The translations under genes were made by a program, and so were the position numbers. Below the pieces are notes generated by a model. It ran no database searches. It was not told where the DNA came from and saw only the letters and a list, made by a program, of their open reading frames with translations. Below, in pieces: positions 11,470 through 33,911 of a DNA stretch of 64,000 nucleotides. Positions within the stretch are counted from its first letter, which is position 1; every line of letters starts with the position of its first letter. The stretch covers positions 226 to 64,225 of the forward strand of contig JAPYRQ010000002.1 in NCBI GenBank assembly GCA_029936935.1. The letters run 5' to 3'. This stretch comes from Dehalococcoidia bacterium (GTDB lineage Bacteria > Chloroflexota > Dehalococcoidia > Lucifugimonadales > UBA1127).

Positions 11470-11520
11470 ACCCGTTGCCAGGGAAGAAGAGGGAGGGCAT
11501 GCCCTCCCTCTTCTTTGTGT

Positions 11521-14231: not shown

Positions 14232-15302
14232 CTAGACACGTCCTTGTATCTCAGGTCCGTCTACGGCGTATCGATGGGCGCGGAATATCGCCCGATTACG
14301 CTTGTCGCCCCGCCAGGGGAAGGTCTCCGGGTTCATGTACTCCCACACGATCTCGCCCTCTGTGGTCACCTCAACCAGTCGACCGGTGCGACCATCACAG
14401 ATGAAAGTGTTGCCGTTGGGGAGCCGTTGCGCGCCGCTGATGCCTGTGCTGAACAGCGATAGCGGCGGGTCTCCGCGATACTGCCAGACGATCTCGCTGG
14501 TCTTGGGGTCAAGCTCCACAACGCGGGAAAAGCAACCGCCTCGAACGCGGTGCTCTCCGTTGTCGAATACCAGGATATTCCCGTTTTCCAGTTGGGTAGG
14601 GTTGTGCTGGTGGGAGAACTCTCCGGGGCCGAACCGCCATTTGACGTCGCCGGTGAATTTGTCGACGATGAGGATGGTGCTGGTCTGGCGGAAGCTCAGC
14701 AGCAGGTTTCCATCCTGCAGCTCCGTCACGCCGTTGCAGTGCGTCCACTCGTGTCGTCCTTCAAGGGAGCATATGACCTCATGGGCAGGATCAAGGTGGT
14801 CTGAACCGTGCCATTCCCACGCCGTGGAGCCATCGGGTGCAAGTTCACGCAGGTAGTCGCTGACAACTTCGTGCTCTTCCTCGCCAGGAGCTACCGCTCC
14901 GCCCTGAATCTTAGCTACAAGCTCTCGCGCCAACGGCTCCCAGCCTATGACCATCGTGTTGCCGTTTTTTAGTATCTCGTGGTCATGGTGGATTGCCGGG
15001 TTGTCGTATCGCCAGACCACATTGCTGTCCCAATCCAGCTCGACGATGGTGGCGCTTGCCCCACCGAACTTCCACTGCTCCTCGCCGGATTGGCATCGTA
15101 GGGACAGGTTGCCGTTGGGGAGCATGAATCCGTAGTAAGGCTCCAATGGTGCAGGGGGAGTCCAAGTATGGACGACCACCCCCTCCATATCGACGAGGTT
15201 GACGTGGTCAGACCCAAAAGTGGTGTACACCGTTACGCCGGGGAATGCTTTCTCGCGGTCCCAGTGCGTGGTACCAGTGGAGCCGAATATTGGAAATCCC
15301 AT
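14232..15302 (-). CDS. Arylsulfotransferase (ASST)-like beta-propeller protein, no signal peptide
   Basis: 356 aa with repeated NGN-type blade motifs (LPNGNLSL, LKNGNTMVIG, LQDGNLLLS, LENGNILVFDNG, LPNGNTFICD) as in Arylsulfotran_2-type proteins. AGGAG precedes the ATG. Confidence 0.6.
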   Translation of the reverse strand: MGFPIFGSTGTTHWDREKAFPGVTVYTTFGSDHVNLVDMEGVVVHTWTPPAPLEPYYGFMLPNGNLSLRCQSGEEQWKFGGASATIVELDWDSNVVWRYDNPAIHHDHEILKNGNTMVIGWEPLARELVAKIQGGAVAPGEEEHEVVSDYLRELAPDGSTAWEWHGSDHLDPAHEVICSLEGRHEWTHCNGVTELQDGNLLLSFRQTSTILIVDKFTGDVKWRFGPGEFSHQHNPTQLENGNILVFDNGEHRVRGGCFSRVVELDPKTSEIVWQYRGDPPLSLFSTGISGAQRLPNGNTFICDGRTGRLVEVTTEGEIVWEYMNPETFPWRGDKRNRAIFRAHRYAVDGPEIQGRV

Positions 15303-15327: not shown

Positions 15328-16617
15328 TCAGTCTTTGACAATCGAATTTGCTTCGTTGGCTGGCTGTTCTATGCCCATGCCCCGGATCGCTTTGTCTCGG
15401 CCTATCCCAACAATTGCGATGATGCATGCAATCGTCCCGCCGATAGCCACCGCGGCGGATGCACCGATGCCGCTTGCCAGTGCGCCTACCTGCATTTGCC
15501 CCATAGGTTGGGCCAGCGTGTAGGTCATTCCCCATATGCCCATGACTCTACCGCGATACTCGTTCGGCACCTCAGAATGGAGGATACTCTGCCCAATGAC
15601 GGTGAACATCTCGTTGCCTGCAGCGGACAGCCACTCCATCGCCAGGAGCAGCGCGTACCAGGGAGACAGGGCGAAGACGATGACCGATCCGCCGAAAGCC
15701 AGTGCACTGCCCACCAGGATACGGCCCTTGCTTCGCTTGCTTCCGATGGAGCCGCCGACTATTGCTCCCGTCAGCCCGCCGACACCTCCCGCAGCGAAGA
15801 TGTAGCTGATGGCAGACCCTGAGGCCTCTCCCATCAACTCTTTCGCAAAGATAGGAATCAATGCAATGTGAGCGCCCGCAAAGAAGGCGTTCATCAGACT
15901 GGTGCCTATAATGAGCCGGAATATGCGGTTATTGCGCACGTACTTGATGCCGTCCTTCAAATCCTCAAGTCCTGAAGCGCCTTGAGCACGCTGTACTGCG
16001 CGCGGCCTGGTGCGGAAGACCATGAAGCTGTAGAAGACGGTGCCGATGGAAACCATGTACAACACTACCCCAGCACCTTGCAATGGAACCCCCAGGTGGT
16101 CAATGAGCAATCCTGCTACCACCGGGGCAAAGATGCGCGCACCAGGGTGGATAGCCGAGTTCAGTCCTACCGCGCTGGACATGTGTTGATGGTCGATTAG
16201 GCTGGAGAAAAAAGCCTGGCGTGATGCTTGCTGGAAAGACTGGACTGCGCCGATACCGAATACGATGGCTAGTACCTGCCAAACTTCAATGTTTTCCGTG
16301 AAGGTAAGCGTAGCGAATAGTGTCCAGAGGAAGCCGTTCATCGTGATGGTAATCATCAACAGGCGTCGCTGGTTGACCTTGTCAGCCATGATGCCCCCCA
16401 GCAGGCCAAGGAACACGGCAGGCGCCGCGCGAGCTAGGCCCAGTAGCCCGAGCGATAGCGCTGAGCCTGTCAGGTCAAAAATCAACCACGCCTGAACAGT
16501 GATGGCCATCTGCTGGCCGATGACCGATGAGAAGTTTCCAGCCCAGTACAGCCGGAAATTCCGGTGTTGCAGCGCCTGGGTTATGGCGAATTTTTGAGCA
16601 AGAGTGTTGATGAGCAT
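15328..16617 (-). CDS. MFS transporter
   Basis: 429 aa, multi-pass hydrophobic profile, and the motif GGIMADKVNQRRLL after TM2. Confidence 0.85.
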   Translation of the reverse strand: MLINTLAQKFAITQALQHRNFRLYWAGNFSSVIGQQMAITVQAWLIFDLTGSALSLGLLGLARAAPAVFLGLLGGIMADKVNQRRLLMITITMNGFLWTLFATLTFTENIEVWQVLAIVFGIGAVQSFQQASRQAFFSSLIDHQHMSSAVGLNSAIHPGARIFAPVVAGLLIDHLGVPLQGAGVVLYMVSIGTVFYSFMVFRTRPRAVQRAQGASGLEDLKDGIKYVRNNRIFRLIIGTSLMNAFFAGAHIALIPIFAKELMGEASGSAISYIFAAGGVGGLTGAIVGGSIGSKRSKGRILVGSALAFGGSVIVFALSPWYALLLAMEWLSAAGNEMFTVIGQSILHSEVPNEYRGRVMGIWGMTYTLAQPMGQMQVGALASGIGASAAVAIGGTIACIIAIVGIGRDKAIRGMGIEQPANEANSIVKD

Positions 16618-16741: not shown

Positions 16742-16771
16742 ATAGACCTCCACATTCGTGTGGAGGTCTAT
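16742..16771 (-). terminator. Intrinsic terminator-like hairpin ending the Rieske block
   Basis: Perfect 13-bp stem ATAGACCTCCACA / TGTGGAGGTCTAT with a TTCG loop, 69 nt downstream of the stop at 16840. Confidence 0.65.
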
Positions 16772-16839: not shown

Positions 16840-18120
16840 CTATCTCGACTTGTTCAGCACGAAAGGCACTGTGTCATTAAATGAAATCTCACGATCTTGC
16901 AGAAGTGACACAGAGCGCAAGCGGTAATCGGACCCCTTTTCAGGGGTGAAAGGCTCGCCACCCTCCATAATTTCGCGGGCACCTCTTAGGTAGACTCTGC
17001 GCAGGTTGATGATAGCGGAGTCTGATGTCCCCAGGTGCTCTTTTGTCCTGTCACAGATGGCACCCATACCCTCTTGGATGCCGGCGTCCTGCACGGAACC
17101 GTTGGCAATGCCCGTGTAGTTCACGTTGCGCTGCATTTCACGGTCAATGCCGTAATCGTTGTCACGGTTGATGGTTGCCCGCATGGTGCGAGGCTCCAAC
17201 TCCAGATCGCTGGCGGGATGGTTCTCACCCTTGTTCAGAGGCCTACTGGCGTTCCAGCTATAGGTGAACATCCAGCAGTTCTCGTCGTCTGCCGGAATCC
17301 ATCCGTGGCCGCTGTAGGTCAGGTCATCGGCGTTGCCGATAGAACCCGGAATGATCGTGAAGAAAGGCATCATGAACGGGGTGATGCGCCAGTAGTACTC
17401 ATCGTTCTCGGCGTCGCGATTGGCACCGTATACGAAACCGTAGTTGGTGTCCTGCACCACGAATCGCGGGGCACTGTCACCGATCATGGCTGTTGGCTGC
17501 ATGACGCCGTTGCGCACCGGGCGCGCTTCCGGGTGGTCTCGCTGATAGGGCGTCAGGCCAGCGTGGAGGAAGGAGACGTGGCTAGAGTCGATGCCACCCT
17601 CGATGCCCTGCACGTAGTTGTTCTCTTGGAGTCGTCGTGACACCTTGCGATGGCTGTCAGGCACCATGGCCCAACCCACTTCTGGAAGGTCTGGTTGAAG
17701 TTCCGCGGGGCCCATGTACGCCCAGATGAAACCGCCCCAGTCGCGTGCTGGATATGCCGTGATCTTTACTTTGTCCTTGAAGTTGCTCTCCGCTGGCTCA
17801 CTGGGCATGTCTACGCAATCCCCGTTAGTGTCAAACTTCCAGCCGTGGTACACGCAGCGCAGACCGCATTCTTCGTTTCGACCGAAGAACATGCTGGCAC
17901 GACGGTGGGGGCAATAGTTATCGATGAGGCCCACATCACCGTTGGTGTCGCGGAACGCCACTAGCTCCTCATTGAGAATCTTGACGCGTACCGGAGGGCT
18001 GTCCGGCTCTGCAATCTCGTCGGAGCACAGTGCAGGAATCCAGAACCGTCGGAGGTAGTCCCCCATCGGGGTGCTGGGACCGGTCTTACAGATGAGTTCG
18101 TTATCGTTTTGGGTCAGCAT
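16840..18120 (-). CDS. Rieske [2Fe-2S] non-heme-iron oxygenase, alpha-only (phthalate/KshA/VanA-type family), paralog A
   Basis: 426 aa. Rieske motif CPHRRASMFFGRNEECGLRCVYH (CxH-x16-CxxH) and mononuclear Fe motif GGIDSSHVSFLH (D-x2-H-x4-H). AGGAGGG precedes the ATG. Confidence 0.9.
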   Translation of the reverse strand: MLTQNDNELICKTGPSTPMGDYLRRFWIPALCSDEIAEPDSPPVRVKILNEELVAFRDTNGDVGLIDNYCPHRRASMFFGRNEECGLRCVYHGWKFDTNGDCVDMPSEPAESNFKDKVKITAYPARDWGGFIWAYMGPAELQPDLPEVGWAMVPDSHRKVSRRLQENNYVQGIEGGIDSSHVSFLHAGLTPYQRDHPEARPVRNGVMQPTAMIGDSAPRFVVQDTNYGFVYGANRDAENDEYYWRITPFMMPFFTIIPGSIGNADDLTYSGHGWIPADDENCWMFTYSWNASRPLNKGENHPASDLELEPRTMRATINRDNDYGIDREMQRNVNYTGIANGSVQDAGIQEGMGAICDRTKEHLGTSDSAIINLRRVYLRGAREIMEGGEPFTPEKGSDYRLRSVSLLQDREISFNDTVPFVLNKSR

Positions 18121-18145
18121 GTGTCCCTCCTTTGAGTATATGGGT

Positions 18146-18179
18146 ACCTAGGCTGATAGGAATTCCCATCAGCCTAGGT
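18146..18179. repeat. 34-nt near-perfect palindrome between the SBP gene and Rieske paralog A
   Basis: ACCTAGGCTGAT-A-GGAATTCC-C-ATCAGCCTAGGT. It has 12-bp outer arms plus a self-complementary GGAATTCC core, with a single A/C mismatch. No U-tract follows. Confidence 0.6.
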
Positions 18180-18185
18180 CAGAGG

Positions 18186-19922
18186 TTACTTCTTGGCAAC
18201 CTGGATCTGGTGGAAGTGGCTCCACAGGCCGGAGACGTTGCCGGGCCAAACCCAGCTCTCAACGAACTCTGGGTTCAGGACGATCTGAGGCGGGAGCCAG
18301 AAGAGGTTCATCGCTATGTGAATCGGATGGGCGATATCGCCAATCTCGCGCAGTAGTTTGTCCTGCTCTGTTGGAAGCATTGTCTTTTGGAGTTGTTTGA
18401 TCAACGGATTTATCTCCAGGGGTTCAAAGCCACCGCCTCGAGGCGTGATATCGGCGTGGTGGACCCGAGTGCTCTGCACGTCGAATGACGCGCTGGACGT
18501 CAGGCCTATCCAATTCTTTAGCTTCAGCGCCCTGGATATGGGACGATGGGCCGCCGAATCGGGGGCTTGGAGTTTCGGCTTCACGCCTACGTCTGCCAAC
18601 ATCGCTCCTATAGACTCCATCGTATCAGCTGCTGCGGCGAATGATGCCACATTGCTGACGTTAACGTTAATTTCCAATGGATTGCTGGGACCGTAACCGG
18701 CCTGTGCCAGGAGATCCCTGGCGGCCTGCGGGTCATAACCGTAGAGACGGTCGTAATTGGCCCGCCATTCCGGGTTGAAGGCCGGGCTGGACTCTGGGAT
18801 GGCCTGGATGATCATATTTTGCCCGGCACCTCTTAGGAATGCATCATTCAGCGCGTTCTTGTCTATGGCCTTGTTAAAGGCATGCCGTACTAGAGGGTTC
18901 AGCCACGGGGAGTCGCAGTGGACGTACCCGCAGGGGGTGTTTTGCGCTTCGTAGCTTCGGTCCGATACGTCTATGTATCCACCTTGGAACGCCGCGAAGA
19001 TTCGGGCACCCTGCTGGGTGCCTTCTGAAACCACCATTCCATCATTGGCGGCTAATTCGGTGCTGTCGGCCCCTAGCTGCGTGATGTGGATCTCGTCTGT
19101 TAATAGGGCTGCAAGCCGGGTAGATTCCTCGCTCATCCACCGGATGGTCAGCTTTGAGAACTCCGGATTGTAACGCCAGTGGTCGTAGTCCACTCGCTCG
19201 AATTCGATGTTCGTCTGCTGGTCGCGGTCGACGTATTTCCACGCAGCGGTGCCCGCAGATGGTGCTGTGTCCATTTGCGGCGGCCCCGATGCCGCATAGT
19301 CAGCAGCGCTCATAATCTCCATTCCGCCGACCTGCTCGGAGAGCCTCCTGAACTGCTCTGCTAAAGGGCTTGGGAGTTGCCAGATGAACTCGGTATCCGT
19401 GAGCGGTTCGATAGTTACTGTCTTGTAGTTCCGTTGGTGGGTATGCTCCGAGTCCTCGGCGCCAAACTCTCCAACAGTGAGGGCCACGTCTTTCCAGCTG
19501 AGGATGCTGCCATCGTGGAAAGGAACGCCGTCTCGGAGTTTGATGCGAATGTCAGAACCATTGGGTTCAATCGACCATTCGGTCGCCAGTTGAGGCACTA
19601 ACGCACCGGTGTCGGCATCCGTGCCGATCAGGTACTCGTACATAGGTACCAACTGAATCTGCGATTGTGGTGATAGCCCTCTCCCAACGTTGTTGGACAG
19701 CAATGAAGGCAACAGCGCTCCAATAATGATCTCGTCCGTCACCGGCGTCATTGCTACAGGGGCGGCTGTTGCTTGTGGAGCCTGGGTTGCAATTGCAGGT
19801 GCGCCAGCATTGGAATCGTCATCGTCATCGTCATCGTCGCTGGAACAAGCGGCTACCAATACTAACGACATTGCTATAACCAAAGTCCATGTGATGAAAT
19901 TTAAACACTTTCGGTTAAGCAT
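18186..19922 (-). CDS. ABC-type solute-binding protein, family 5 (peptide/opine/nickel type), lipoprotein; no cognate permease or ATPase nearby
   Basis: SBP_bac_5-like core (LATEWSIEPNGSDIRIKLRDGVPFHDGS). Start trimmed to MLNRK (19922), giving the signal peptide plus lipobox LVLVAAC|SS, followed by a D8 linker. Confidence 0.85.
   Translation of the reverse strand: MLNRKCLNFITWTLVIAMSLVLVAACSSDDDDDDDDSNAGAPAIATQAPQATAAPVAMTPVTDEIIIGALLPSLLSNNVGRGLSPQSQIQLVPMYEYLIGTDADTGALVPQLATEWSIEPNGSDIRIKLRDGVPFHDGSILSWKDVALTVGEFGAEDSEHTHQRNYKTVTIEPLTDTEFIWQLPSPLAEQFRRLSEQVGGMEIMSAADYAASGPPQMDTAPSAGTAAWKYVDRDQQTNIEFERVDYDHWRYNPEFSKLTIRWMSEESTRLAALLTDEIHITQLGADSTELAANDGMVVSEGTQQGARIFAAFQGGYIDVSDRSYEAQNTPCGYVHCDSPWLNPLVRHAFNKAIDKNALNDAFLRGAGQNMIIQAIPESSPAFNPEWRANYDRLYGYDPQAARDLLAQAGYGPSNPLEINVNVSNVASFAAAADTMESIGAMLADVGVKPKLQAPDSAAHRPISRALKLKNWIGLTSSASFDVQSTRVHHADITPRGGGFEPLEINPLIKQLQKTMLPTEQDKLLREIGDIAHPIHIAMNLFWLPPQIVLNPEFVESWVWPGNVSGLWSHFHQIQVAKK
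19815..19838. repeat. Hexanucleotide microsatellite (ATCGTC)x4 encoding the poly-Asp linker
   Basis: Four perfect tandem ATCGTC units on the + strand, equal to (GACGAT)x4 on the coding strand. They encode DDDDDDDD immediately after the lipobox Cys-Ser-Ser. Confidence 0.9.
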
Positions 19923-19989
19923 TTCTTTCCCCTTATGTTCGCAGTTTTTGTGTTTCTGCCCAATCCTTAAGGACGTTACTTGGGTGTCT

Positions 19990-20178
19990 TCAAGTCTTAA
20001 CACCCGCCTGTTTGCCTGCTTCAATATACGCTTCCCCCAGGGTCATGAACACCTCTGACTCTTTACCCTTGAAATGGATGCTGTACAAAAGCGGCTGGTT
20101 CGATTCGTACAACTCAAATATCTCTGCATTTCCGTTTGGCCCAGCGATGACTTCTACCTTGGTTGCTTCTACTGCCAT
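19990..20178 (-). CDS. Hypothetical 62-aa protein inside the Rieske block
   Basis: MAVEATKVEVIAGPNGNAEIFELYESNQPLLYSIHFKGKESEVFMTLGEAYIEAGKQAGVKT. GAGGAAAGG lies 5 nt upstream of the ATG. It has no Cys, so it is not a ferredoxin. I recognise no family. Confidence 0.45.
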   Translation of the reverse strand: MAVEATKVEVIAGPNGNAEIFELYESNQPLLYSIHFKGKESEVFMTLGEAYIEAGKQAGVKT

Positions 20179-20278
20179 TTTGCCCTTTCCTCGGGTATTA
20201 CAAGGTTCCCTAATGGCCCAGACCCCCTCCCCGAGGAACCGGGTGGTATGCCAGAGTCTGTGTACATTTTTTTAAAGG

Positions 20279-21607
20279 CTACCCTGTTGCCTGCTGTTCT
20301 TCTGATAGGGCAGCCCATTGTAGGTCTTGCGTGGCTTCAATACCATTGACCCCGTTAGGTATCAGAGTTGAGACGGACCGAACCTTATACAGGTCCGGGT
20401 TGTCCACGGTCGCCGGTACTGTGCCGTCTTCGCGCAGCGCAATAGCAGCTCTGGCTAAGATACGTCGCATCCTGATGATGCCTGCGTCCGTTGTGCCCAA
20501 GTGTTCCTGGTCGCGCTTGTAAACCACACCCATGCTCTCTGTCATGCCGTTGTCCTGACCTCTACCGGGTATGCCGCTGTAACCAAGCCCGCCTACGCGT
20601 GCCTTTTGAGCATCGCGGTCAACCAAGTAGTCGTTCTCGCGAGTTCCTGCAATCTTGAATCGATCGAACCAGCCGGTGCCATTGCGTGAGCTGTCCACAT
20701 GGAAGGATGTGATCATGCCATCGACAATCGGCGGGCCGCCGAATCCTGGAGGACGGGGCAGTGCAGGGTTTCTGGTGCTGATGTGCCACCGCATGCAGTT
20801 CTCGTCATCCATGGGCACTACTGCGATGAAGCCCTTCTCTCTGAAGCTAGCGGGGATCATTGCGTAGAACGGGAAGAGGAAGTGGGCTATGCGCCAGTAG
20901 GTGGTGTCTTCTTCTGCAGGACGGTTATTGCCGGAAGTGCACCCGAACTCCGTGTCTGTGACAGAGTCACGGGCCCAACGGGTCTTCAATGCATATCGCT
21001 CAAAGGTGACGTCAGGGTCTGGAATCTCCTCTGGCTCCCGTGCACCGTTGTGAAGGAAACTGACATGGGACGTGTCGTAGTCACCTTCAAGAGACTGCAT
21101 CCAGTTACATTCTGAGTAGTAGCCGCTGACGGTGTACTGGCCTTCGGGCATCATGTTGGCTACCAGTGACGGCAACGGCGGAGCTTCTTGCCGGGGCCCC
21201 ATGTAGACCCAAATCAGTCCGCCACGCTCTTCTACTTTGTACGAAATGGCTCGAACCTTGTCGATGAACCTACTCTCCGGCGGCTCGGAAGGCATGTCCA
21301 GGCAGGTGCCATCGGCAGCAAAATGCCAGCCGTGGTACACACAACGCAAGCCGCACTCTTCATTGCGGGCATAGAACATGGAGGCGCCACGATGCGGACA
21401 GGAGTTCCCTATGACGCCTACTTTTCCGTTGGTGTCTCGGAAGGCGATAAGGTCTTCCCCAAGAAGTTTCAGACGGACTTGCTGACCGTCCGGGTTCTGG
21501 AGTTCCACTGACATCATGGCGGGCATCCAATACTCACGCATCAGGTCGCCCATGATGGTGCCTGGCCCGGTTTGAGTTAGCAGCTCGTTCTCTTCTTTGC
21601 TTAACAT
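20279..21607 (-). CDS. Rieske non-heme-iron oxygenase, alpha-only, paralog C
   Basis: 442 aa. Motifs CPHRGASMFYARNEECGLRCVYH and GDYDTSHVSFLH. GAGGAGG precedes the ATG. Confidence 0.9.
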   Translation of the reverse strand: MLSKEENELLTQTGPGTIMGDLMREYWMPAMMSVELQNPDGQQVRLKLLGEDLIAFRDTNGKVGVIGNSCPHRGASMFYARNEECGLRCVYHGWHFAADGTCLDMPSEPPESRFIDKVRAISYKVEERGGLIWVYMGPRQEAPPLPSLVANMMPEGQYTVSGYYSECNWMQSLEGDYDTSHVSFLHNGAREPEEIPDPDVTFERYALKTRWARDSVTDTEFGCTSGNNRPAEEDTTYWRIAHFLFPFYAMIPASFREKGFIAVVPMDDENCMRWHISTRNPALPRPPGFGGPPIVDGMITSFHVDSSRNGTGWFDRFKIAGTRENDYLVDRDAQKARVGGLGYSGIPGRGQDNGMTESMGVVYKRDQEHLGTTDAGIIRMRRILARAAIALREDGTVPATVDNPDLYKVRSVSTLIPNGVNGIEATQDLQWAALSEEQQATG

Positions 21608-21698
21608 CCTCTATTCCTCCTCATTCTGTCCGTCCCCTGGGAACTTCTCAATTGTTCCGCGGCCAAATTCTACGAAGAATAAATTTGTGGGAACGCTA

Positions 21699-22982
21699 TT
21701 ATTGGACCGCCGGTGAGTATCCCTCACCCTCAAACAATGCCTCGTGTAGGGCGTCCTGCCAAACGGCATCTTTCGGCAAGACCCGTTCTATTGCTCGAAT
21801 GCCGTAGTAGGTTCCCGCCACTCCCGGAGGGTTCCCACCATCTTCAACGACTTTTGCCGCTTCAAGCAGCATGCGACGTGCGGAGATGATGGCGCGGTCA
21901 GTTGTGGCCAGGTGCTCGTGGGACCTGTCGTACTGGATGCCCATGGACTCCTGAATGGCCCTGTCCTGTAGGTTCGCGGCGCTCTCAATACCGGTGTAGG
22001 TCTTGGTTCGCTGCACCTCGCGGTCGATACCGTAGTCGTTGTCGCGGTTCCAAACGCACCGGAAGCCGTTCTGTACATCGATGTATTCGTAGACCTCTGG
22101 GCCATGCTTGGACCGCAGTTCATCGCTGAGGGGTTCCGGTGCCAGCGTGTACGTCCAGTTGTAGACCATGCAGTTGTCGTCATCCATAGGCACCCACATG
22201 TGACCTGCCACCATCGGCGGTGAATCGCCTCGCCCCACGGTGTTCTGGTTGGGCCGTAGCTGGGTGAACGGCATAACATAGTGGTACGCACGGACAAAGT
22301 TGCCATCCAGATCAGGGACAGGGCGAATAGAGCCGTAGGTATAGCCATAGTCGGTCGGTTGTACTTCAATGTGGGCAACCGTTGCACGCTGCTCGTAGCG
22401 GGCGGCGTTGGTGATGTCATTGTTGTGAAGATAGGTGGCATGGATGGAATCGATCCCACCTTCAAGGGCCTGGGACCAGTTGCCCTCCTGCTTCACCTTG
22501 GTGACGCCCCTATGGGTGTCCGGTACCTGGGTCCACTCGAACTTGGGTGGCGGAGGCTGCTTTTCAGGAGGCCCCATGTACGTCCAGATAACGCCGCCCA
22601 TGTCCAGGCAGGGATAGGACGTGATTTTGACCTTATCCTTGAAGTTGCTCTCGGCGGGCTCACTGGGCATGTCGACACAGTTACCGTTCACATCGAACTT
22701 CCAGCCGTGGTACACGCAGCGCAGGCCACATTCTTCGTTTCGACCGAAGAACATGCTCGCACGACGGTGGGGGCAATAGTTATCGATGAGGCCGATGCTG
22801 CCATCGGTGTCCTTAAATGCGATGAGTTCCTCGCCCACCAATTTCACGCGGACGGGCGTGCCATCCGCCTCTTCAAGTTCCCATGAGAGGAGCGCTGGCA
22901 GCCAGTATCGCCGCATGACTTCCCCCATTGGAGTGCCAGGGCCAGTGTGGACAATGACCTCGTTCTCTTCTCTGTTCAGCAT
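21699..22982 (-). CDS. Rieske non-heme-iron oxygenase, alpha-only, paralog B
   Basis: 427 aa. Motifs CPHRRASMFFGRNEECGLRCVYH and GGIDSIHATYLH. GAGGAAGGGG precedes the ATG. Confidence 0.9.
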   Translation of the reverse strand: MLNREENEVIVHTGPGTPMGEVMRRYWLPALLSWELEEADGTPVRVKLVGEELIAFKDTDGSIGLIDNYCPHRRASMFFGRNEECGLRCVYHGWKFDVNGNCVDMPSEPAESNFKDKVKITSYPCLDMGGVIWTYMGPPEKQPPPPKFEWTQVPDTHRGVTKVKQEGNWSQALEGGIDSIHATYLHNNDITNAARYEQRATVAHIEVQPTDYGYTYGSIRPVPDLDGNFVRAYHYVMPFTQLRPNQNTVGRGDSPPMVAGHMWVPMDDDNCMVYNWTYTLAPEPLSDELRSKHGPEVYEYIDVQNGFRCVWNRDNDYGIDREVQRTKTYTGIESAANLQDRAIQESMGIQYDRSHEHLATTDRAIISARRMLLEAAKVVEDGGNPPGVAGTYYGIRAIERVLPKDAVWQDALHEALFEGEGYSPAVQ

Positions 22983-23023
22983 CGAACTTCCCCTTCCTCC
23001 CCTGTACTAAAAGACGTTCTCGT

Positions 23024-24283
23024 CTAGGCCGCGCCGACAGCCACCTTCTCTGTGGTCTCCTCAAACGTGACCTTCTTATCCATCACATCGGCGACAGAAC
23101 GGACGCGGTATGCCGAGCCCTTCATGGGCACAAAGGGCTCCTTACCTTCCAACAGGTCTCGACACCCCTGAAGGTACATACGGCGCATGGCGATGACTGC
23201 TGAGTCCGATGTGCCAAGGTGCTCTTTGGTGCGGTCACAGATGGCGCCCATGCTCTCCTGAATGCCTGAGTCCTGCACGGAGATTGCCTCGATGCCGGTG
23301 TAGGTCTTGGTTCGTTGCACTTCACGGTCAATGCCGTAGTCGTTGTCGGCGTTCATGGCCGCGCGCATGGAGCGGGGTTCCAATTCAAGGAAGCTGGCGC
23401 CGTGACCTTCGCCTTCGTTGAGTGGCCTACTGGCGTTCCAGCTATAGGTGAACATCCAGCAATTTTCATCATCGGCAGGCACCCAACCATGGCCGCTGTA
23501 CGTGCGTTCATCGGGGTCGCCTGTGCCTCCAGGTATCACCGTGAAGAAGGGGAGCATGAAAGGCGTTAGTCGCCAGTAGTAGGAGTCGTTCTCCGCTTCA
23601 CGGTTGGCTCCGTACACAAACCCGTAGTCCGTGTTCTTCACAATGAAGTGAGGTGCGGTGTCTGTATTGCTGAGGGAATGACCTGCGCGCGAGGGATCGT
23701 CCCGTACCACTGGAGGAAGACCGAAGTGCAGGAAGGAGATGTGGCTGGAATCGATGCCACCCTCGATGCCCTGCACGAAGTTATTCTCCTGCAACCGGCG
23801 GGATACTTTGCGGTTGCTTTCAGGAACCATTGCCCAGCCGACTTCCGGGAGCTCCGGCATCGATTCTGCTGGCCCCATGTACGCCCAGATATAACCGCCC
23901 CAGTCTTCAGCTGGGTACGACTTGATCTTCACCTTGTCCTTGAAATTGCTTTCGGCAGGCTCGGATGGCATGTCCACGCAATCGCCCTTGGTATCGAACT
24001 TCCAGCCGTGGTACACGCACCGCAGGCCGCACTCTTCGTTGCGACCGAAGAACATGCTTGCTCGGCGGTGGGGGCAGAAGTTGTCGATGATGCCAACATC
24101 GCCATTGGTGTCGCGGAAGGCGATGAGTTCTTCGTTGAGGATCTTGACCCGGACTGGCGGGCTATCGGGTTCGGCAATCTCTTCAGACAGCAGGGCTGGC
24201 ATCCAGAACCGCCTCAGATACTCGCCCATGGGAGTGCCGGGGCCGGTCCTGGTGATCATCTCATTGTCTTGTGCGCTCAGCAT
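23024..24283 (-). CDS. Rieske non-heme-iron oxygenase, alpha-only, paralog A' (closest to A)
   Basis: 419 aa. Motifs CPHRRASMFFGRNEECGLRCVYH and GGIDSSHISFLH. AGGAAGGG precedes the ATG. Confidence 0.9.
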   Translation of the reverse strand: MLSAQDNEMITRTGPGTPMGEYLRRFWMPALLSEEIAEPDSPPVRVKILNEELIAFRDTNGDVGIIDNFCPHRRASMFFGRNEECGLRCVYHGWKFDTKGDCVDMPSEPAESNFKDKVKIKSYPAEDWGGYIWAYMGPAESMPELPEVGWAMVPESNRKVSRRLQENNFVQGIEGGIDSSHISFLHFGLPPVVRDDPSRAGHSLSNTDTAPHFIVKNTDYGFVYGANREAENDSYYWRLTPFMLPFFTVIPGGTGDPDERTYSGHGWVPADDENCWMFTYSWNASRPLNEGEGHGASFLELEPRSMRAAMNADNDYGIDREVQRTKTYTGIEAISVQDSGIQESMGAICDRTKEHLGTSDSAVIAMRRMYLQGCRDLLEGKEPFVPMKGSAYRVRSVADVMDKKVTFEETTEKVAVGAA

Positions 24284-24333
24284 GTATGCCCTTCCTGCGT
24301 GTCTGTATTGCGAAACGACGGTGCGTTGCGTTC

Positions 24334-25623
24334 CTACCCCATGATTGGCGAGTACTCGGCTCCCTCAAACAGCAGTTCCTTCATACCCTCTTGCCACGGG
24401 ACATCAACGGGCAACACCCGCTGGATGGATCTGACTTTGTAGTACGAGGGCCCTGTGCCCCTTGGGGTGCCGCCATCACCAACAACGTTGGCAGCTTCCT
24501 GAAGCATGCGGCGTGTGGCAATGATTGCGCGGTCCGTAGTCGCCAGGTGCTCTCGCGTCCGATCAACGATCGTCCCCATGGATTCCTGTATGCCACGGTC
24601 CTGGAGATTGGCACCCACGCGTGCATCGGCAAGGATGCCTGTGAAGGTCTGCGTACGCTGCGCTTCTCGATCGATGCCGTAGTCGTTATCGGCGTTCCAG
24701 ATGCATCGGAACCCGTTGTTGATGTCGATGACCTCGTAAGCCAGGTCAGAATGCTTGGCCTTGTCTGCCTCGGTTAGCGGCTCCTCGCCAAGGGAGTACA
24801 CGAAGTTCCAGACGAAGTGGTTCTCATCGTCAATGGGCACCCACATATGTCCGGCTACTTTGGGGGATGCACTACTTTCACGACGGTCGTCCGGGCGAAG
24901 CTGCGTGAAGGGCATGATGAACTGGTACGCCCGAACGAAATTCCCCTCCTCCTTGGAGAGGTACCGGACAGAGCCGTAGGCATAGCCATAGTCGGTCGGT
25001 TCCACCTCAATGCTCGGTGCGGCAGAGCGGGATTCGTATCGAGTGGTGTTGGTGATATCGTTGTTGTGGAGGTAGGAAGCGTGGACGGAATCAACGCCAC
25101 CCTCCAGGCCCTGCAGCCAGTTGCTCTCCTGAAGCACCTTGTTCACTGCCCTGTGTGTCTCCACTACCTGAGTCCACTCAAACATTGGCGGTGGTGGCTG
25201 GTTCTCCAGTGTGCCCATGTAGGTCCAAATCACGCCGCCTATGTCCATGCAGGGGTAGGCCAGTACCTTGACCTTGTCTTTGAAGTTGCTTTCGGAGGGC
25301 TCGGAGGGCATGTCTACACAGTTGCCATCCACGTCAAACTTCCAGCCGTGATAGACGCAGCGTAGGCCGCATTCTTCGTTCCTGCCGAAGAACATGCTTG
25401 CCCTGCGGTGGGGGCAGTAGTTGTCGATGAGCCCTATCTTGCCGTCAGTGTCCTTGAAGGCGATAAGCTCCTCGCCCAGCAGCTTCACCCGCACCGGTGT
25501 GCCGTCTGACTCCGCTACTTCCCATGAAAGGAGGGCCGGAATCCAGTATCGGCGCATCAACTCCCCCATAGGGGTGCCGGGTCCAGTTTGGGATACAAGC
25601 TGGTTATCTTGAGCGTTGAGCAA
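24334..25623 (-). CDS. Rieske non-heme-iron oxygenase, alpha-only, paralog B' (closest to B)
   Basis: 429 aa. Motifs CPHRRASMFFGRNEECGLRCVYH and GGVDSVHASYLH. It uses a TTG start preceded by GGAGGAAG. Confidence 0.9.
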   Translation of the reverse strand: MLNAQDNQLVSQTGPGTPMGELMRRYWIPALLSWEVAESDGTPVRVKLLGEELIAFKDTDGKIGLIDNYCPHRRASMFFGRNEECGLRCVYHGWKFDVDGNCVDMPSEPSESNFKDKVKVLAYPCMDIGGVIWTYMGTLENQPPPPMFEWTQVVETHRAVNKVLQESNWLQGLEGGVDSVHASYLHNNDITNTTRYESRSAAPSIEVEPTDYGYAYGSVRYLSKEEGNFVRAYQFIMPFTQLRPDDRRESSASPKVAGHMWVPIDDENHFVWNFVYSLGEEPLTEADKAKHSDLAYEVIDINNGFRCIWNADNDYGIDREAQRTQTFTGILADARVGANLQDRGIQESMGTIVDRTREHLATTDRAIIATRRMLQEAANVVGDGGTPRGTGPSYYKVRSIQRVLPVDVPWQEGMKELLFEGAEYSPIMG

Positions 25624-25667
25624 TATCTTCCTCCATCATGTTAGCTAAGTTCGAGAAGTGTGTTTCG

Positions 25668-26960
25668 CTACCCGCCTACAGGCTGATCCTCTGGGTACAT
25701 CTCCGGCAGCAGGACATCCCGCCAGGCCAGCTTGCCATCAAATACCTTCTCAATTGCGCGAAGGTTGTAGTACGACGTGGTGTCAGCGCCCCTGGGTGAG
25801 GCACCCTCTGCGACGTCCCGTGTGGCCTCGATGAGCAGTTTACGAGTGGCGATGATTGCCGCGTCCGCGGGCCCAAGGTGCTCACGTGTGCGGTCAACCA
25901 CGGGGCCCATGCTCTCCTGCACGCCACGGTCCTGGGCATTGATGCCATCGATGCCGGTGAACGTGTCCGTCCGCTGGACATCGCGGTCAATAAGCCAGTT
26001 GTTGCGGATGTTGCCCTTCGCCCTGTACTGGTTGTCCGGGTCTACGTTTGGCCAGGCATTGGCAGAACCCTCCTGGGTCCGTTCCTTCTCTGTAAGCGGC
26101 TCTTCGCCAAAGCTGTAAGACCAGTTCCAGACCATGACGTTGTCGTCGTCGATGGGTACCCAGTGGTGTCCATCAACGTGTGTGCGGTCAGGCGCTCCGG
26201 CACGGCCGATCTGGCTCGGTCGAAGTTGGGTGAAGGGCATGGCAAAGTGATAGCCGCGTACGTACTGTTCTTTGTCGCCTAGTGGCCTGATGCCTGTGTA
26301 CCGATAGCCGTAGTCCGTGACGTCCACTTCCAGCTTGGGAGCGCCGCCTCGCACAAAGGGTGTGGACATCTGAATGCCTGCGCTCTTCGCGTTCTCTCGA
26401 ATCTGTCGGTGCAGGATGGGTGCGTGAGAAGAATCGATGCCGCCCTCAAGCGCCTGGAGCCAGTTGGACTCCTGCCAGACCTTGGTCACGCCGCGGTGCG
26501 TTTCCGGCACCCGTGTGTACTCAAAGTTGGGTACAGGTGGAATCTTGTCTGCCGGGCCCATGTAGACCCAGATGATGTCCCCCACTTCATGCGTCGGGTA
26601 CGCTTTGGCCTTGACCTTGTCTTTGAAATCGATTGGCTCGTTCATCTGATCGACACAGTTGCCGTTCACATCGAACTTCCATCCGTGATAGACACAACGA
26701 AGCCCGCTTTCCTCATTGCGACCCAAGAACAGGGAAGCAAGTCTGTGGGGGCAGTTCTCTTCAAGGATACCGATGTCACCGTTGGTGTCGCGGAACGCCA
26801 CCAGATTCTCGGCCATTATGCGTAATCGTACGGGGTCACAGTCCGAATTTGGGAGTTCACTTATGAGCAGTGCGGGCAACCAATACCTTCGCATCGTCTC
26901 ACCCATAGGTGTGCCAGGCCCAATCTTGGTTACCAGCGTGTTTTCATCAGCAGTTAACAT
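25668..26960 (-). CDS. Rieske non-heme-iron oxygenase, alpha-only, paralog D
   Basis: Motifs CPHRLASLFLGRNEESGLRCVYH and GGIDSSHAPILH. The ORF-track start (27098) is trimmed to MLTADENTLV (26960). That start aligns with the other five N-termini and is preceded by GGGGGAGGG. Confidence 0.88.
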   Translation of the reverse strand: MLTADENTLVTKIGPGTPMGETMRRYWLPALLISELPNSDCDPVRLRIMAENLVAFRDTNGDIGILEENCPHRLASLFLGRNEESGLRCVYHGWKFDVNGNCVDQMNEPIDFKDKVKAKAYPTHEVGDIIWVYMGPADKIPPVPNFEYTRVPETHRGVTKVWQESNWLQALEGGIDSSHAPILHRQIRENAKSAGIQMSTPFVRGGAPKLEVDVTDYGYRYTGIRPLGDKEQYVRGYHFAMPFTQLRPSQIGRAGAPDRTHVDGHHWVPIDDDNVMVWNWSYSFGEEPLTEKERTQEGSANAWPNVDPDNQYRAKGNIRNNWLIDRDVQRTDTFTGIDGINAQDRGVQESMGPVVDRTREHLGPADAAIIATRKLLIEATRDVAEGASPRGADTTSYYNLRAIEKVFDGKLAWRDVLLPEMYPEDQPVGG

Positions 26961-27046
26961 AGCCCTCCCCCTTCGTGCTTTATCCCCCTGAATACTCATT
27001 GGAATAACCAAGTAACCGATCGCAAATTGACCAGTATTATTCCATA

Positions 27047-27060
27047 GCGCAAAGATGCGC
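27047..27060. promoter_or_regulatory. Dyad GCGCA-N4-TGCGC in the Rieske/LysR divergent intergenic region
   Basis: 5-bp perfect inverted repeat, 87 nt upstream of the paralog D start. A TTGACA hexamer on the minus strand (complement of 27075-27080) lies just upstream of it. Confidence 0.25.
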
Positions 27061-27103
27061 TTAGGAGATACAATTGTCAATGCATAAATAGTGAACATTT
27101 CTT

Positions 27104-27116
27104 TTCCATAATGGAA
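27104..27116. promoter_or_regulatory. T-N11-A dyad TTCCAT-A-ATGGAA (LysR-type box candidate)
   Basis: Perfect 6-bp inverted repeat with a 1-nt spacer, matching the generic LysR T-N11-A architecture. It lies 5 nt upstream of the LysR GTG. The half-site TTCCATA recurs at 27040-27046. Confidence 0.35.
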
Positions 27117-27120
27117 CTAT

Positions 27121-28017
27121 GTGACGTGGGGTGATGTGATACCTGAACTACCGGAATGGAGAGTGTTCTGCGCTACGGCAAAGTTCCACAGCATCTCCGG
27201 GGCTGCGGAGTCCCTTGGGATAGGCTCTCCAACGGCGACCAAGCAGATTGCGAAGCTTGAAGAGCGACTTGGCGTGCAGCTCCTCGATAGGACGACGCGA
27301 CCGGTGCAACTTACGGCGATGGGTGAGCGATACGCCGCGCTGGCATCGCCGTTGGTAGAAGGTTTTGACAACATGGTCGGCTCCGTGACGGCTGAGGGCA
27401 CGACCGACCCGGTGAGCGTCACTGCGCCGTCAGGGTTTATCAGCTACAAGCTGCCAGATGCGGTGAAGTTCTTTCAAGACACGTTTCCCTACAACCAGGT
27501 CCGTATCTACTCACGCACCAAGTCCGAGGCCATCCGTATGCTGTCTGACGGCGATGTGGATATGGCCCTCGTCGATCCATAGGTGCCGCCACACATCGAT
27601 TTCCAACCGCTCATCACCTTTGAGCGCGTGCTCATCGCTGCTCGAAATCACCCTCTAGCCCAGCAGTATGAAGCCACTATCGATGAGATTGCGCGCTACC
27701 CGCTGACGTTCCTCCGAGCGGGCACAACCACAAGGACCATGCTTGAAGCGGAGATGAAACGGCAGGAAATTCCCTATGAAGTGGGCATTGAGTTGGACCA
27801 CACAGAGGCCGTAAAACGCTACGTGTCGCTGGGCCTTGGAATATCCGTGGTGCCTGAATTCATCGTCGAACCCAGGGACAGAGAAAGCTTGGCGATTATC
27901 CGCGTACAAGGTTCGTATGCAACCGAACAAATCGGCGCCGCGACGTTACGGGAGAAACCCCTCACCACGTCTGCAAGCAACTTCCTTATGGTGCTTCGCC
28001 AGACCCTGGGGCAATAA
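27121..28017 (+). pseudogene. LysR-family transcriptional regulator interrupted by an in-frame TAG (27580-27582)
   Basis: ORF 27121-27582 carries the HTH (FHSISGAAESLGIGSPTATKQIAKLEERLGVQLLDR). ORF 27583-28017 is in the same frame and carries the rest of the LysR substrate-binding domain. The junction reads GTC GAT CCA TAG GTG CCG. The combined length of about 298 aa is typical for a LysR regulator. Confidence 0.8.
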
Positions 28018-28027
28018 GCCTGAAGGA

Positions 28028-29329
28028 CTAGGATTTGTGTGTAGGTATCTGGGGTGGCCGGATCGCATAGGCAGCCAGGGCCGCTAGTATCCACGTCCCT
28101 ACTATCATCAGAAACGGGGCAGTGTAAGAGCCGCTCCAATCATGCATGGCCCCGATCATCAGCGGCGCTATGGCCCGGGTGCCATTCGCGAAGGGTGTCA
28201 TGAACCCTCTGATCGCACCAATGTGGTCGCGGCCGAAGAACTCGGCGGTGGCCAGCGACTGCAGCATGAAGAACCCCGCCAGGTTTATCCCCTGGAACAC
28301 GCCCCACGCCACCATCATGACAGGGTTGAAGATGAACAGCATGAAGATGACCCCAACCGTTGCCAGACACCCTTGTAGGATCATCATGGTGCGGATGTTG
28401 TACTTCCCCGCTAGGTAGCCCCAGACGAAGCGCCCACCAACGTTGAAGAAGCCGTAGACCGCCACGCCACTGGCTGCCACTTCCAGACTGAACCCCTTTT
28501 CCTGGAAGTAGGGTATCCAGTGGGCCTGGTAGCCGGTGATACCCACCACAGCCAGCGCCAATGCCAATGTGAGTATCCAGAAGGAACTGGAGCGGAGCGC
28601 CTCTCCCTTTGTGAAGCTGTACTCATCAGAAGGTGTGGGTCTTTTGGATACGGCCGTTGCGGAGGGTGGAGCAGGCTTTGTCTCGGGCGTGTCGCCATCA
28701 GGAAGCATGCCCATGACTTCTGGGCTGGTACGAGCCATGAGCGATAGGGGGAGGACGATGATGAGGGTGGTGATTCCCAGCCAGAGCCAGGCGTCACGCC
28801 ACCCCATGCTGCCAATGAGGAATGTGAGGAACAGTGGGAAGATGAGTGGGCCGCTGGCTGCCCCGGCGTTGCTCCAGGATAGTGCTTGGGCGCGTTTGCG
28901 CACAAACCACTTGATGGCCAGGGTCTGCCACATACCGCTGCCCTGAGCCGCTACTCCAAGGGCTCCCAAGACTCCGTAGACCATATAGTACTGGAACGGC
29001 GTTTCCACCCACCGTAGAAGAATGAACGAGAGGGCGAGGAAGATACTGCCGATGGGTAAGATTACCTGCGGAGCCCAGGGGTGGTCGGCCAACGGACCAA
29101 GGATCGGCCCCATGAGACCGCCAAGTAACACACGTACTGACAGCGCTCCGAAGATGACGGTCTGGCTCCAGCCAAGGTCCGATTGCATTGCCGCCAGGAA
29201 GGTGCTGGTGGCGAACCCGGCGCTTCCCAGGTTGAACGAACCGCTGATTGCGCCGGCCCCCACGATGATCCATCCGTAGAAGAATGGAAGCTTGCGCCGG
29301 GTTTTCCCCTTACCTTGCATGAGCGACAT
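28028..29329 (-). CDS. MFS transporter (oxalate/formate-antiporter-like subfamily, tentative)
   Basis: The multi-pass hydrophobic protein begins MSLMQGKGKTRRKLPFFYGWIIVGAGA. The ORF-track start (29644) overlaps the upstream MFS gene and is trimmed to 29329. Confidence 0.8.
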   Translation of the reverse strand: MSLMQGKGKTRRKLPFFYGWIIVGAGAISGSFNLGSAGFATSTFLAAMQSDLGWSQTVIFGALSVRVLLGGLMGPILGPLADHPWAPQVILPIGSIFLALSFILLRWVETPFQYYMVYGVLGALGVAAQGSGMWQTLAIKWFVRKRAQALSWSNAGAASGPLIFPLFLTFLIGSMGWRDAWLWLGITTLIIVLPLSLMARTSPEVMGMLPDGDTPETKPAPPSATAVSKRPTPSDEYSFTKGEALRSSSFWILTLALALAVVGITGYQAHWIPYFQEKGFSLEVAASGVAVYGFFNVGGRFVWGYLAGKYNIRTMMILQGCLATVGVIFMLFIFNPVMMVAWGVFQGINLAGFFMLQSLATAEFFGRDHIGAIRGFMTPFANGTRAIAPLMIGAMHDWSGSYTAPFLMIVGTWILAALAAYAIRPPQIPTHKS

Positions 29330-33867: not shown

Positions 33868-33898
33868 AAAACAGGGCTTCCATTATGGAAGCCCTGTT
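33868..33898. terminator. Intrinsic terminator hairpin
   Basis: Perfect 14-bp stem AAACAGGGCTTCCA / TGGAAGCCCTGTTT with a 3-nt loop, between the cupin gene and tRNA-Pro. Confidence 0.6.
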
Positions 33899-33911
33899 TG
33901 ACTTTCTTGGT

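Follow-up and report, generated by a model that had tools for sequence, protein, structure and literature searches.

The stretch analysed here, a 64-kb window (64,000 nucleotides) from contig JAPYRQ010000002.1 of a Dehalococcoidia bacterium, contains a block of six genes encoding Rieske oxygenase alpha subunits, all on the minus strand. In gene order these are R6 (25668-26960, 430 aa), the first of the array, R5 (24334-25623, 429 aa), R4 (23024-24283, 419 aa; a paralog of R1), R3 (21699-22982, 427 aa), R2 (20279-21607, 442 aa; the most divergent paralog) and R1 (16840-18120, 426 aa), the last of the six. An earlier annotation made from the letters alone (hereafter the sequence-only reading) had proposed six alpha-only Rieske oxygenase genes at these positions. 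The open reading frames (ORFs) are all present, and a Pfam search places each of them in the Rieske oxygenase family, with matches to the Rieske domain (PF00355; E 1e-15 to 1e-19, above the gathering score) and to LigXa_C (PF19301; E 5e-23 to 1e-40, 82-140 bits versus a cut-off of 27). Between R2 and R1, on the same strand, lie a small ORF, orf62 (19990-20178, 62 aa), and the gene of an orphan family-5 solute-binding lipoprotein (solute-binding protein, SBP; 18186-19922, 578 aa; Pfam SBP_bac_5, E 4e-45). Both had been noticed in the sequence-only reading, as had the major facilitator superfamily (MFS) transporter and arylsulfotransferase-like (ASST-like) genes downstream of R1, and all four hold up by Pfam or by the ratio of nonsynonymous to synonymous substitution rates (dN/dS). 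A divergent LysR-type regulator gene (27121-28017, plus strand) faces R6 across a control region (26961-27120).

The genes of the block are separated by gaps of 41-100 nt and each is preceded by its own GGAGG-like Shine-Dalgarno sequence, both as originally described. The start of R6 was set at 26960, which is not the start of the longest ORF and agrees with the N-termini of the paralogs, and that of R5 at a TTG codon (25623) with a GGAGGA Shine-Dalgarno sequence, as needed for the conserved N-terminus. Public gene calls begin R5 at Met19 (411 aa; 7411-8646 in L081, a 71-kb contig of a Tara metagenome-assembled genome, MAG), losing an N-terminal segment that is conserved in all paralogs.

All six proteins can be aligned over their full length, with the motifs C70-P-H72-x16-C89-x2-H92 and D178-x2-H181-x4-H186 invariant. 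The residues of the Rieske motif and of the iron site recognised in the sequence-only reading are thus all in place, with one correction to their roles: D178 had been counted among the iron ligands and is, by homology to the phthalate 4,5-dioxygenase PDO_KF1, the bridging Asp, while the iron is bound by H181, H186 and the Asp that corresponds to D343 (PMC8649396). A profile of the family searched against the PDB matched three solved structures over their full length, namely 9INA (E 2e-126), which is the isophthalate dioxygenase IPDO of Comamonas testosteroni KF1 (PMC12445078), the orphan oxygenase RO_CH34 (7FHR, E 6e-125) and PDO_KF1 (7FJL/7V25; E 2e-112 for 7FJL); 9INA is also the closest PDB entry to R3 (E 1.4e-94). 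The six share full-length homology with these three enzymes (E 1e-82 to 1e-126), all of them alpha-only, and agree with them in the ligands of the Rieske cluster and of the iron, in the bridging Asp and in having counterparts of Arg231 and Arg244. The resemblance to LigXa lies in the Pfam domain that bears its name. No Ring_hydroxyl_B or similar beta-subunit match was obtained by Pfam among the ORFs of the window, and the oxygenases have no signal sequence, whereas the SBP is extracytoplasmic. Judged by homology, the six belong to the isophthalate/phthalate-dioxygenase clade (LigXa_C) of Rieske non-heme-iron oxygenases and are cytoplasmic and alpha-only.

Their closest named records are Dehalococcoidia MAGs. 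Within the array, R1 and R4 share 74% and R3 and R5 69% protein identity, while the other pairs are at 38-53% and R2 is only 38-43% identical to the other five; the nearest relatives of R2 and R6 sit at other loci, some of them in other phyla, and not within the array. According to these comparisons, the six represent no fewer than four old subfamilies (R1 with R4, R3 with R5, R6, and R2), to which two younger tandem duplications have contributed.

We compared the window with related loci from an NCBI assembly (L001), the Tara contig L081, the complete related chromosome OZ252245.1 (L003), two ENA contigs and one JGI contig (L082-L084) and another JGI contig (L096). The gene order two MFS, LysR, five Rieske, orf62, SBP, Rieske, MFS, ASST-like, orf263 and fhs recurs in L001, L081, L082-L084 and L096, and the chimeric assembly that the sequence-only reading had listed as a danger is not borne out. 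Tandem paralogs can indeed mislead assemblers, yet that the array is a chimera or a mis-collapsed repeat is next to inconceivable, and sequence comparison, as far as it reaches, refutes it: DNA identity between the paralogs is only 67-75%, the GC content is uniform across the block, and the same order and content are found in at least five independent assemblies (Tara, ENA, JGI, NCBI). The genes are not collapsed repeats either, because the paralogous proteins are only 38-74% identical. The flat GC content over the block (0.55-0.59) also rules out a compositional island.

The DNA of L081 is 83% identical to that of the window over 19 kb. Compared with L081, dN/dS lies at 0.03-0.11 for the six oxygenases, orf62 and the SBP, which are under strong purifying selection, and the proteins R1 and R3-R6 are 94-96% identical to their orthologs (R6: 95%, dN/dS 0.06; R5: dN/dS 0.04; R4: 96%, and 80% to the L003 ortholog; R3: dN/dS 0.03; R1: 94%, and 81% to the L003 ortholog, dN/dS 0.03). 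R2 has only 79% identity to its L081 ortholog, with dN/dS still at 0.08. It belongs to a sub-block formed by R2, orf62 and the SBP gene (18186-21607, versus 11376-14840 in L081), in which amino acid identity is 78-81% and dS reaches 1.0-1.8, versus a dS of 0.4-0.9 for R3-R6, so that the sub-block is more diverged in both dN and dS. To judge from these distances, it may be an older allele or have undergone recombination.

The content of the array changes between lineages. In L003 it reads R6-R4-R2-orf62-SBP-SBP-R1, with R3 and R5 absent. Among 79 loci collected across genomes with Rieske genes as seeds, about 45 of them from Chloroflexota, the family is present once within 10 kb in 59, twice in 13, three times in 6 and four times in 1, and the six copies of the window form the largest array against this sample. 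Further copies are numerous within genomes, with at least 14 on contigs of the related Tara MAG CAJWXP01 and at least nine in the complete genome OZ252245.1.

To look at possible substrates, we mapped the six proteins and their orthologs onto PDO_KF1, with residue roles taken from its structural study (PMC8649396). The equivalents of D178, H181, H186, D343, R231 and R244 are invariant in all of them. Arg244 of PDO forms salt bridges with the substrate carboxylates (PMC8649396), and its equivalent is also kept in IPDO and RO_CH34. Arg207, which is essential for phthalate turnover, is absent from all six (A/Y/Y/L/Y/P in R1-R6), in a variable loop where the alignment is less certain. Around this common anchor, positions 182, 256, 266, 278, 280 and 339 vary by subfamily, each state being kept in the L081 and L003 orthologs: R1 and R4 have V or I, I, H, M, T and G or I, R2 has V, I, I, R, H and a gap, and R3, R5 and R6 have A, R, H, V, N and A or I (from R1 to R6, V/V/A/I/A/A at 182, T/H/N/T/N/N at 280 and G/-/A/I/A/I at 339). 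Positions 182, 278, 280 and 339 match neither PDO nor IPDO. Of the substrate determinants of phthalate 4,5-dioxygenase, the six have only the Arg244 equivalent, and Arg207, Ser182, Phe280 and Phe339 are missing. As for isophthalate, the Arg (PDO 244) is found in 6/6 and the isophthalate-binding His of IPDO (PDO 266) in 5/6, R2 having Ile, while the aromatic-stacking Phe at PDO 339 is not kept and no cognate reductase is encoded in the cluster; this likeness to isophthalate dioxygenase does not amount to membership. By these residues none of the six is predicted to be a true phthalate 4,5-dioxygenase, and the phthalate names given in databases are over-annotations. The pattern fits that expected of enzymes with a common carboxylate handle but putatively different substrates.

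The same arginine pair can also be read otherwise, as one handle present on all the substrates of a single route, in which the six enzymes would act successively on one class of complex molecule, for instance by O-demethylations or hydroxylations of a poly-substituted aromatic acid, in the manner of NdmA/B/C on caffeine. The tight co-directional packing with individual Shine-Dalgarno sequences would suit such a route, as would the Amidohydro_2 (decarboxylase/hydrolase-type) genes and fhs in the neighbourhood, and the lack of a diol dehydrogenase in the block fits a mono-oxygenase or demethylase chemistry as in LigXa. Yet array content varies, with four oxygenases in L003 and six in the window, L081 and L096, which is unexpected for an obligate six-step pathway; for R2 and R6 the closer relatives are found elsewhere, at single-copy loci, and members of the family are scattered through the same genomes, at many loci with one or two genes. 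We therefore regard a sequential pathway as unlikely, while granting it a small share of the probability.

Regarding electron supply, neither Pfam on all large ORFs nor a six-frame scan for Fe-S and nucleotide-binding motifs retrieved a ferredoxin, a reductase or a beta subunit in the 64 kb, in agreement with the sequence-only reading; apart from the six Rieske genes, the motif scan yielded nothing but shadow frames on the antisense strand. That reading had reserved the case of a reductase encoded immediately outside, which would have made the system a conventional one. On the contigs that extend the window, no electron-transfer partner is found in ~8 kb past either end. We also considered orf263, downstream of the block, as an electron carrier, which is unlikely: the protein has no Cys, and only sub-threshold matches were obtained, PNPOx-like in its C-terminal part (PNPOx/F420-like) and SnoaL-like in its N-terminal part.

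Homologs from other phyla present a different picture. A small Rieske ferredoxin and a Pyr_redox_2/Reductase_C reductase are encoded directly upstream of the Burkholderiales homologs (Caballeronia L031, Cupriavidus L040), and a reductase with NAD_binding_1 and Fer2 domains is encoded near those of Streptomyces (L036), Rudaea (L047) and Pandoraea (L063), all by Pfam. By contrast, a screen of the ~45 Chloroflexota loci with regular-expression motifs, followed by a check of the candidates, gave no electron-transfer gene near the oxygenases. Eleven ferredoxin or reductase candidates from this screen were rejected, all being shadow ORFs or unrelated enzymes (FAD_binding_3, lipoamide-dehydrogenase-like, GMC and KARI proteins among them). 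The missing neighbour is hence not special to the window, since none is found near the family in these ~45 loci, and within the limits of such a screen the absence of an adjacent partner looks like the rule for LigXa_C oxygenases in Chloroflexota.

Several terminal Rieske oxygenases are known to draw on one unlinked electron chain, as do the KshA paralogs with KshB in Rhodococcus, scattered oxygenases of sphingomonads, and LigXa with LigXc/LigXd. In such systems there are more terminal oxygenase genes than genes for the reductases and ferredoxins, to which they are unlinked, and substrate range varies from paralog to paralog; the paralogs are usually dispersed or paired with beta subunits, unlike the six alpha-only co-directional genes and SBP gene found here. 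A reductase encoded in trans would be the only conventional way for the six to work.

The characterised relatives function with dedicated partners. IPDO, an alpha3 trimer, has a cognate reductase, and PDO consists of two stacked trimers (PMC8649396 for PDO). Neither a cognate reductase, as the characterised enzymes have, nor a dihydrodiol dehydrogenase, as encoded in the iph cluster, is present in this locus. Since electrons cross between neighbouring subunits through the bridging Asp (PMC8649396), one may imagine paralogous alpha subunits assembled in mixed trimers or hexamers, where electrons would go from the Rieske centre of one paralog to the iron site of a different one and specificities would be combinatorial. 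D178 and the Rieske ligands, which make up the interface motifs, do not vary among the six, and co-transcription of the adjacent genes is probable. However, both PDO (alpha3alpha3) and IPDO (alpha3) are homo-oligomers, identity across subfamilies is only 38-53%, and many relatives are encoded by single genes, which makes hetero-oligomers a very improbable arrangement.

The SBP gene starts at an ATG (19922), and its product begins with a signal peptide in which a lipobox (LVAAC) precedes a poly-Asp linker. Its PDB relatives are distant only, the opine binders AgaA and AccA (E 1e-9 to 1e-12). No ATP-binding cassette (ABC) ATPase motif was found in the window save that of SbcC, nor any ABC permease, and no ABC ATPase or permease in any of the SBP-containing Dehalococcoidia loci. 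In the Rieske-seeded sample, an SBP gene lies directly beside an oxygenase gene at L002, L003, L019, L020, L028, L048 and L060. In order to remove the bias of Rieske seeding, we built a second metagenome sample seeded with the SBP, in which 28 loci have at least 1.5 kb on both sides. A LigXa_C gene is found within 1 kb in 11 of these 28 loci and within 8 kb in 19, while an ABC ATPase motif occurs in ~5 of 79 SBP-seeded loci. The adjacency of SBP and oxygenase genes, at 39%, looks well above the ~4% expected by chance, an estimated background that assumes ~50 copies among 2,500 genes, ~50 copies per genome being the level reported for some SAR202. The four nearby MFS genes may encode the actual importers.

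Immediately to the left of window position 1 there is another orphan SBP_bac_5 gene (4245-6002 of L092), which adjoins Meth_synt_2, glyoxalase, MOSC and MFS genes, with no ABC membrane genes.

An SBP gene within a Rieske dioxygenase operon has a precedent in tphC, which is accompanied by a divergent regulator and whose membrane components, tpiBA, are encoded elsewhere (PMC8556258). The locus resembles the tph and iph operons in having an SBP gene among Rieske genes, a divergent regulator and the membrane parts of the transport system outside the cluster. It differs from them in that its SBP is of ABC-type family 5 and not of the tripartite tricarboxylate transporter (TTT/Bug) type, its regulator is LysR-type, six oxygenases stand in place of one, and reductase and dehydrogenase genes are missing.

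The small orf62 is a real gene, because its dN/dS is low (0.11 versus L081, 0.13 versus L003). It belongs to a family of ~60-residue proteins with the conserved pattern EGPNG...GEAYIEAG.KAGVKT, of which we found 29 clusters at E <=1e-3 among 1.8 billion representatives, and its distant members do not reliably adjoin Rieske genes. AlphaFold2 predicts three strands and a helix (beta3-alpha) with a mean confidence score (pLDDT) of 86; compared with the PDB, this fold has no significant match (best E 0.3, template-modelling (TM) score below 0.5). A hidden ferredoxin or a known fold was considered and rejected: orf62 is devoid of Cys and has no Pfam or NCBIfam match and no fold match in the PDB. 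Two relatives have unusual contexts. P0132 (112 aa) combines ~49 N-terminal residues homologous to orf62 with a C-terminal segment like the tail of an R2-type Rieske oxygenase, and is either a deletion fusion or the product of a chimeric contig. The distant homolog P0137 lies directly upstream of an ORF with, by eye, a putative LigB-type extradiol dioxygenase N-terminus (region 80-851 of L085).

Two strong hairpins punctuate the block. The terminator-like hairpin after R1 (16742-16771, minus strand; stem of 13-14 bp followed by UUGCUUUC) is real (z about -5.9), as the sequence-only reading had it; it is not the only clear one, as that reading also held. A second hairpin lies between the stop codon of the SBP gene and R1 (18146-18179, minus strand), with a 15-bp stem and no U tract (dG -31.8, z -5.5). 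Both are kept in L081 via compensatory changes. The hairpin at 18146-18179 is not a dispersed repeat of the repetitive extragenic palindrome (REP) kind, being unique in the window, and resembles the long palindromes found at convergent gene ends of the same genome. In the window, perfect palindromes of 15-23 nt end convergent gene pairs at 2223-2269, 11484-11515 and 33869-33899, and are probably bidirectional terminators. A scan with generic promoter and terminator consensus sequences gave counts no higher than in shuffled sequence and missed both strong hairpins, and of the three palindromes it caught only 11484-11515; Rfam searched on 11-31 kb gave no match. At two other Dehalococcoidia loci (L019, 9808-10000; L048, 9918-10000) a very stable hairpin, with a U tract in L019, precedes the Rieske gene adjacent to an SBP gene, which suggests a recurring 3' element after SBP genes.

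The 160-nt region between R6 and the LysR gene, examined by sequence, by alignment with L081 and L084 and for inverted repeats, contains a core of ~60 nt that is nearly invariant among assemblies whose coding DNA is 83% identical. It includes a TTGACA hexamer and the dyad AGCGCA-N4-TGCGCT (27046-27061). Within the same region lies a T-N11-A palindrome, TTCCATAATGGAA, at 27104-27116, and the dyad and this palindrome are plausible candidate LysR sites. The divergent LysR gene of the sequence-only reading is indeed there, with HTH_1 and LysR_substrate domains; it is interrupted, its domains being carried by two same-frame ORFs on either side of an in-frame TAG (27580-27582), at a codon that reads CAG (Gln) in the intact genes of L081 and L084. 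L001, a separate assembly with 99.86% identity, shares this TAG, and since the rest of the gene is perfectly conserved, the TAG is recent or polymorphic. It is not a reassigned codon, because TAG is the normal stop of 5/6 oxygenase genes.

A nonsense codon shared by two non-identical assemblies raises the prospect that the locus is silenced or decaying in the window strain, the regulator being a pseudogene, the array staying uninduced and the genes surviving as the loss is recent. Frameshifts in two other genes of the window, which recur in the same form in other assemblies, go in this direction. On the other side, the six oxygenases, orf62 and the SBP are intact with dN/dS at 0.03-0.11, the LysR gene is fully conserved in its remainder, its HTH part could still bind DNA, and the gene is intact in close relatives. 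Decay of the locus seems to us improbable, and would concern regulation only, leaving the gene identities unaffected.

We favour, as a fairly probable explanation, a chromosomal catabolic cluster of a marine Dehalococcoidia bacterium of the SAR202 type, whose set of oxygenases would act on different carboxylated compounds of dissolved organic matter (DOM), with electrons from an unlinked, shared reductase. Each oxygenase would form a homotrimer, or stacked trimers, and hydroxylate or demethylate a different carboxylated aromatic or aromatic-like compound. Electrons would pass from NAD(P)H to a reductase, or to a ferredoxin and reductase, encoded elsewhere and common to many paralogs. The extracytoplasmic family-5 lipoprotein may capture substrate and hand it to membrane components encoded elsewhere, with the neighbouring MFS carriers as possible importers alongside it. 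Transcription would run from the conserved, LysR-controlled divergent promoter through R6-R5-R4-R3-R2-orf62-SBP, where the hairpin after the SBP gene could either attenuate read-through into R1 or stabilise the upstream mRNA, and the LysR nonsense codon may have led to lost or altered induction in the window strain. The sequence-only reading had likewise proposed a battery of oxygenases of different substrate range: the pocket divergence between subfamilies fits this part of the proposal, while we infer the one common reductase and the feeding by the SBP.

Several points weigh against this explanation. The reductase encoded in trans is presumed, the search having covered the 64 kb and ~8 kb at each end, and a scan for Fe-S and reductase motifs may overlook unusual carriers. 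No gene for a cis-dihydrodiol dehydrogenase was found in the block, which is unexpected for ring-dihydroxylating dioxygenases, and mono-oxygenation or demethylation is equally open because of this absence. Between the SBP and its adjacent Rieske paralog we detected no signal of co-divergence once orthologs were excluded (Spearman 0.008); co-diverging cassettes of the two were thus rejected, and a specificity link of one SBP to one oxygenase is unsupported because no co-divergence extends beyond orthologs. The regulator is cut short in the window strain. Finally, the single apparent operon of the sequence-only reading is doubtful, given the conserved, terminator-style hairpin between the SBP gene and R1.

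A less conventional view would take the repeated pairing of an orphan family-5 SBP, here joined by orf62, with LigXa_C oxygenases, at Chloroflexota loci that lack ABC membrane genes and electron-transfer genes, as the sign of an undescribed cassette system. Its interchangeable modules of capture plus oxidation would all use a single importer and a single electron donor, perhaps of an unconventional kind, with orf62 serving as an adaptor or chaperone. We rate this as quite unlikely.

No paper on the assembly turned up in a literature search for its accession, but the array has close parallels in the SAR202 literature. SAR202 group VII genomes encode 1-62 COG4638 alpha paralogs versus 1-3 beta subunits, and these paralogs, mostly annotated as phthalate 4,5-dioxygenase, are proposed to widen the substrate range (Saw 2020, PMC6946804), while many ring-modifying oxygenases were described from Arctic SAR202 (Colatriano 2018, PMC6123686). 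The likeness concerns marine Dehalococcoidia with many alpha paralogs and few or no beta subunits (PMC6946804, PMC6123686), as well as the proposed broader range of oxidisable recalcitrant or aromatic DOM. The novelty claimed by the sequence-only reading for the paralog block was thus overstated, since expansions of alpha-only ring-hydroxylating dioxygenases (RHD) were already published for SAR202 (PMC6946804, PMC6123686) and the absence of adjacent partners looks usual for this family in Chloroflexota. The array is a well-preserved local instance of the published SAR202-type alpha-only RHD expansion and not a new kind of system. In the parts consulted of both papers, paralogs are counted per genome, a six-gene tandem array, a family-5 SBP and a small ORF are not described, and the electron-donor question is not raised, the word 'ferredoxin' being absent (PMC6946804, PMC6123686).

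Chloroflexota of the SAR202 type are abundant in the ocean and are believed to use expanded oxygenase families to oxidise recalcitrant dissolved organic carbon, and the locus offers a compact example of this expansion that is conserved between assemblies. It provides six diverged oxygenases, all intact and sharing a carboxylate anchor, together with one SBP and one control region, all of which could be expressed and screened to learn the real substrates of the enzymes. The recurrence of orphan SBP genes and the lack of electron-transfer genes beside the family in the Chloroflexota loci examined point to a modular organisation, and heterologous assays would need a surrogate reductase. Current views are not overturned by the locus; what it adds is an array that is real and under selection, a case from the active site against the phthalate label, a second hairpin, a LysR nonsense codon, the recurrence of orphan family-5 SBP genes beside oxygenases, and the lack of an electron-transfer gene near the latter in ~45 Chloroflexota loci.

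The surroundings of the block are those of a chromosome, as rpoB, rpoC, polA, ffh and fhs are also present in the window (Pfam annotation), together with genes of the HpaB, luciferase-like and amidohydrolase kinds that SAR202-type genomes typically carry. After the R1 hairpin come, on the minus strand, the MFS transporter gene (15328-16617; Pfam MFS_1 / MFS_3), syntenic in L081 and L003, the gene of the ASST-like beta-propeller protein (14232-15302; Pfam Arylsulfotrans, E 2e-23), in which no signal peptide was seen, and orf263 (13295-14086), encoding a conserved protein of 263 aa and likewise syntenic in L081 and L003. Beyond the LysR gene, two further MFS transporter genes (28028-29329 and 29368-30624, minus strand) were assigned by Pfam and by gene calls in L001 and L081. 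A DUF3500 gene (6073-7289) and a 2-hydroxyacid dehydrogenase gene (57090-58057) are each split into two ORFs; the splits recur in L091, L088 and L089, and with the LysR gene bring the number of disrupted genes to three in 64 kb. Near the left end of the window, a small cytochrome c gene and a gene with a cupredoxin domain lie side by side (1120-2205) and are followed by a perfect palindrome of 23 nt.

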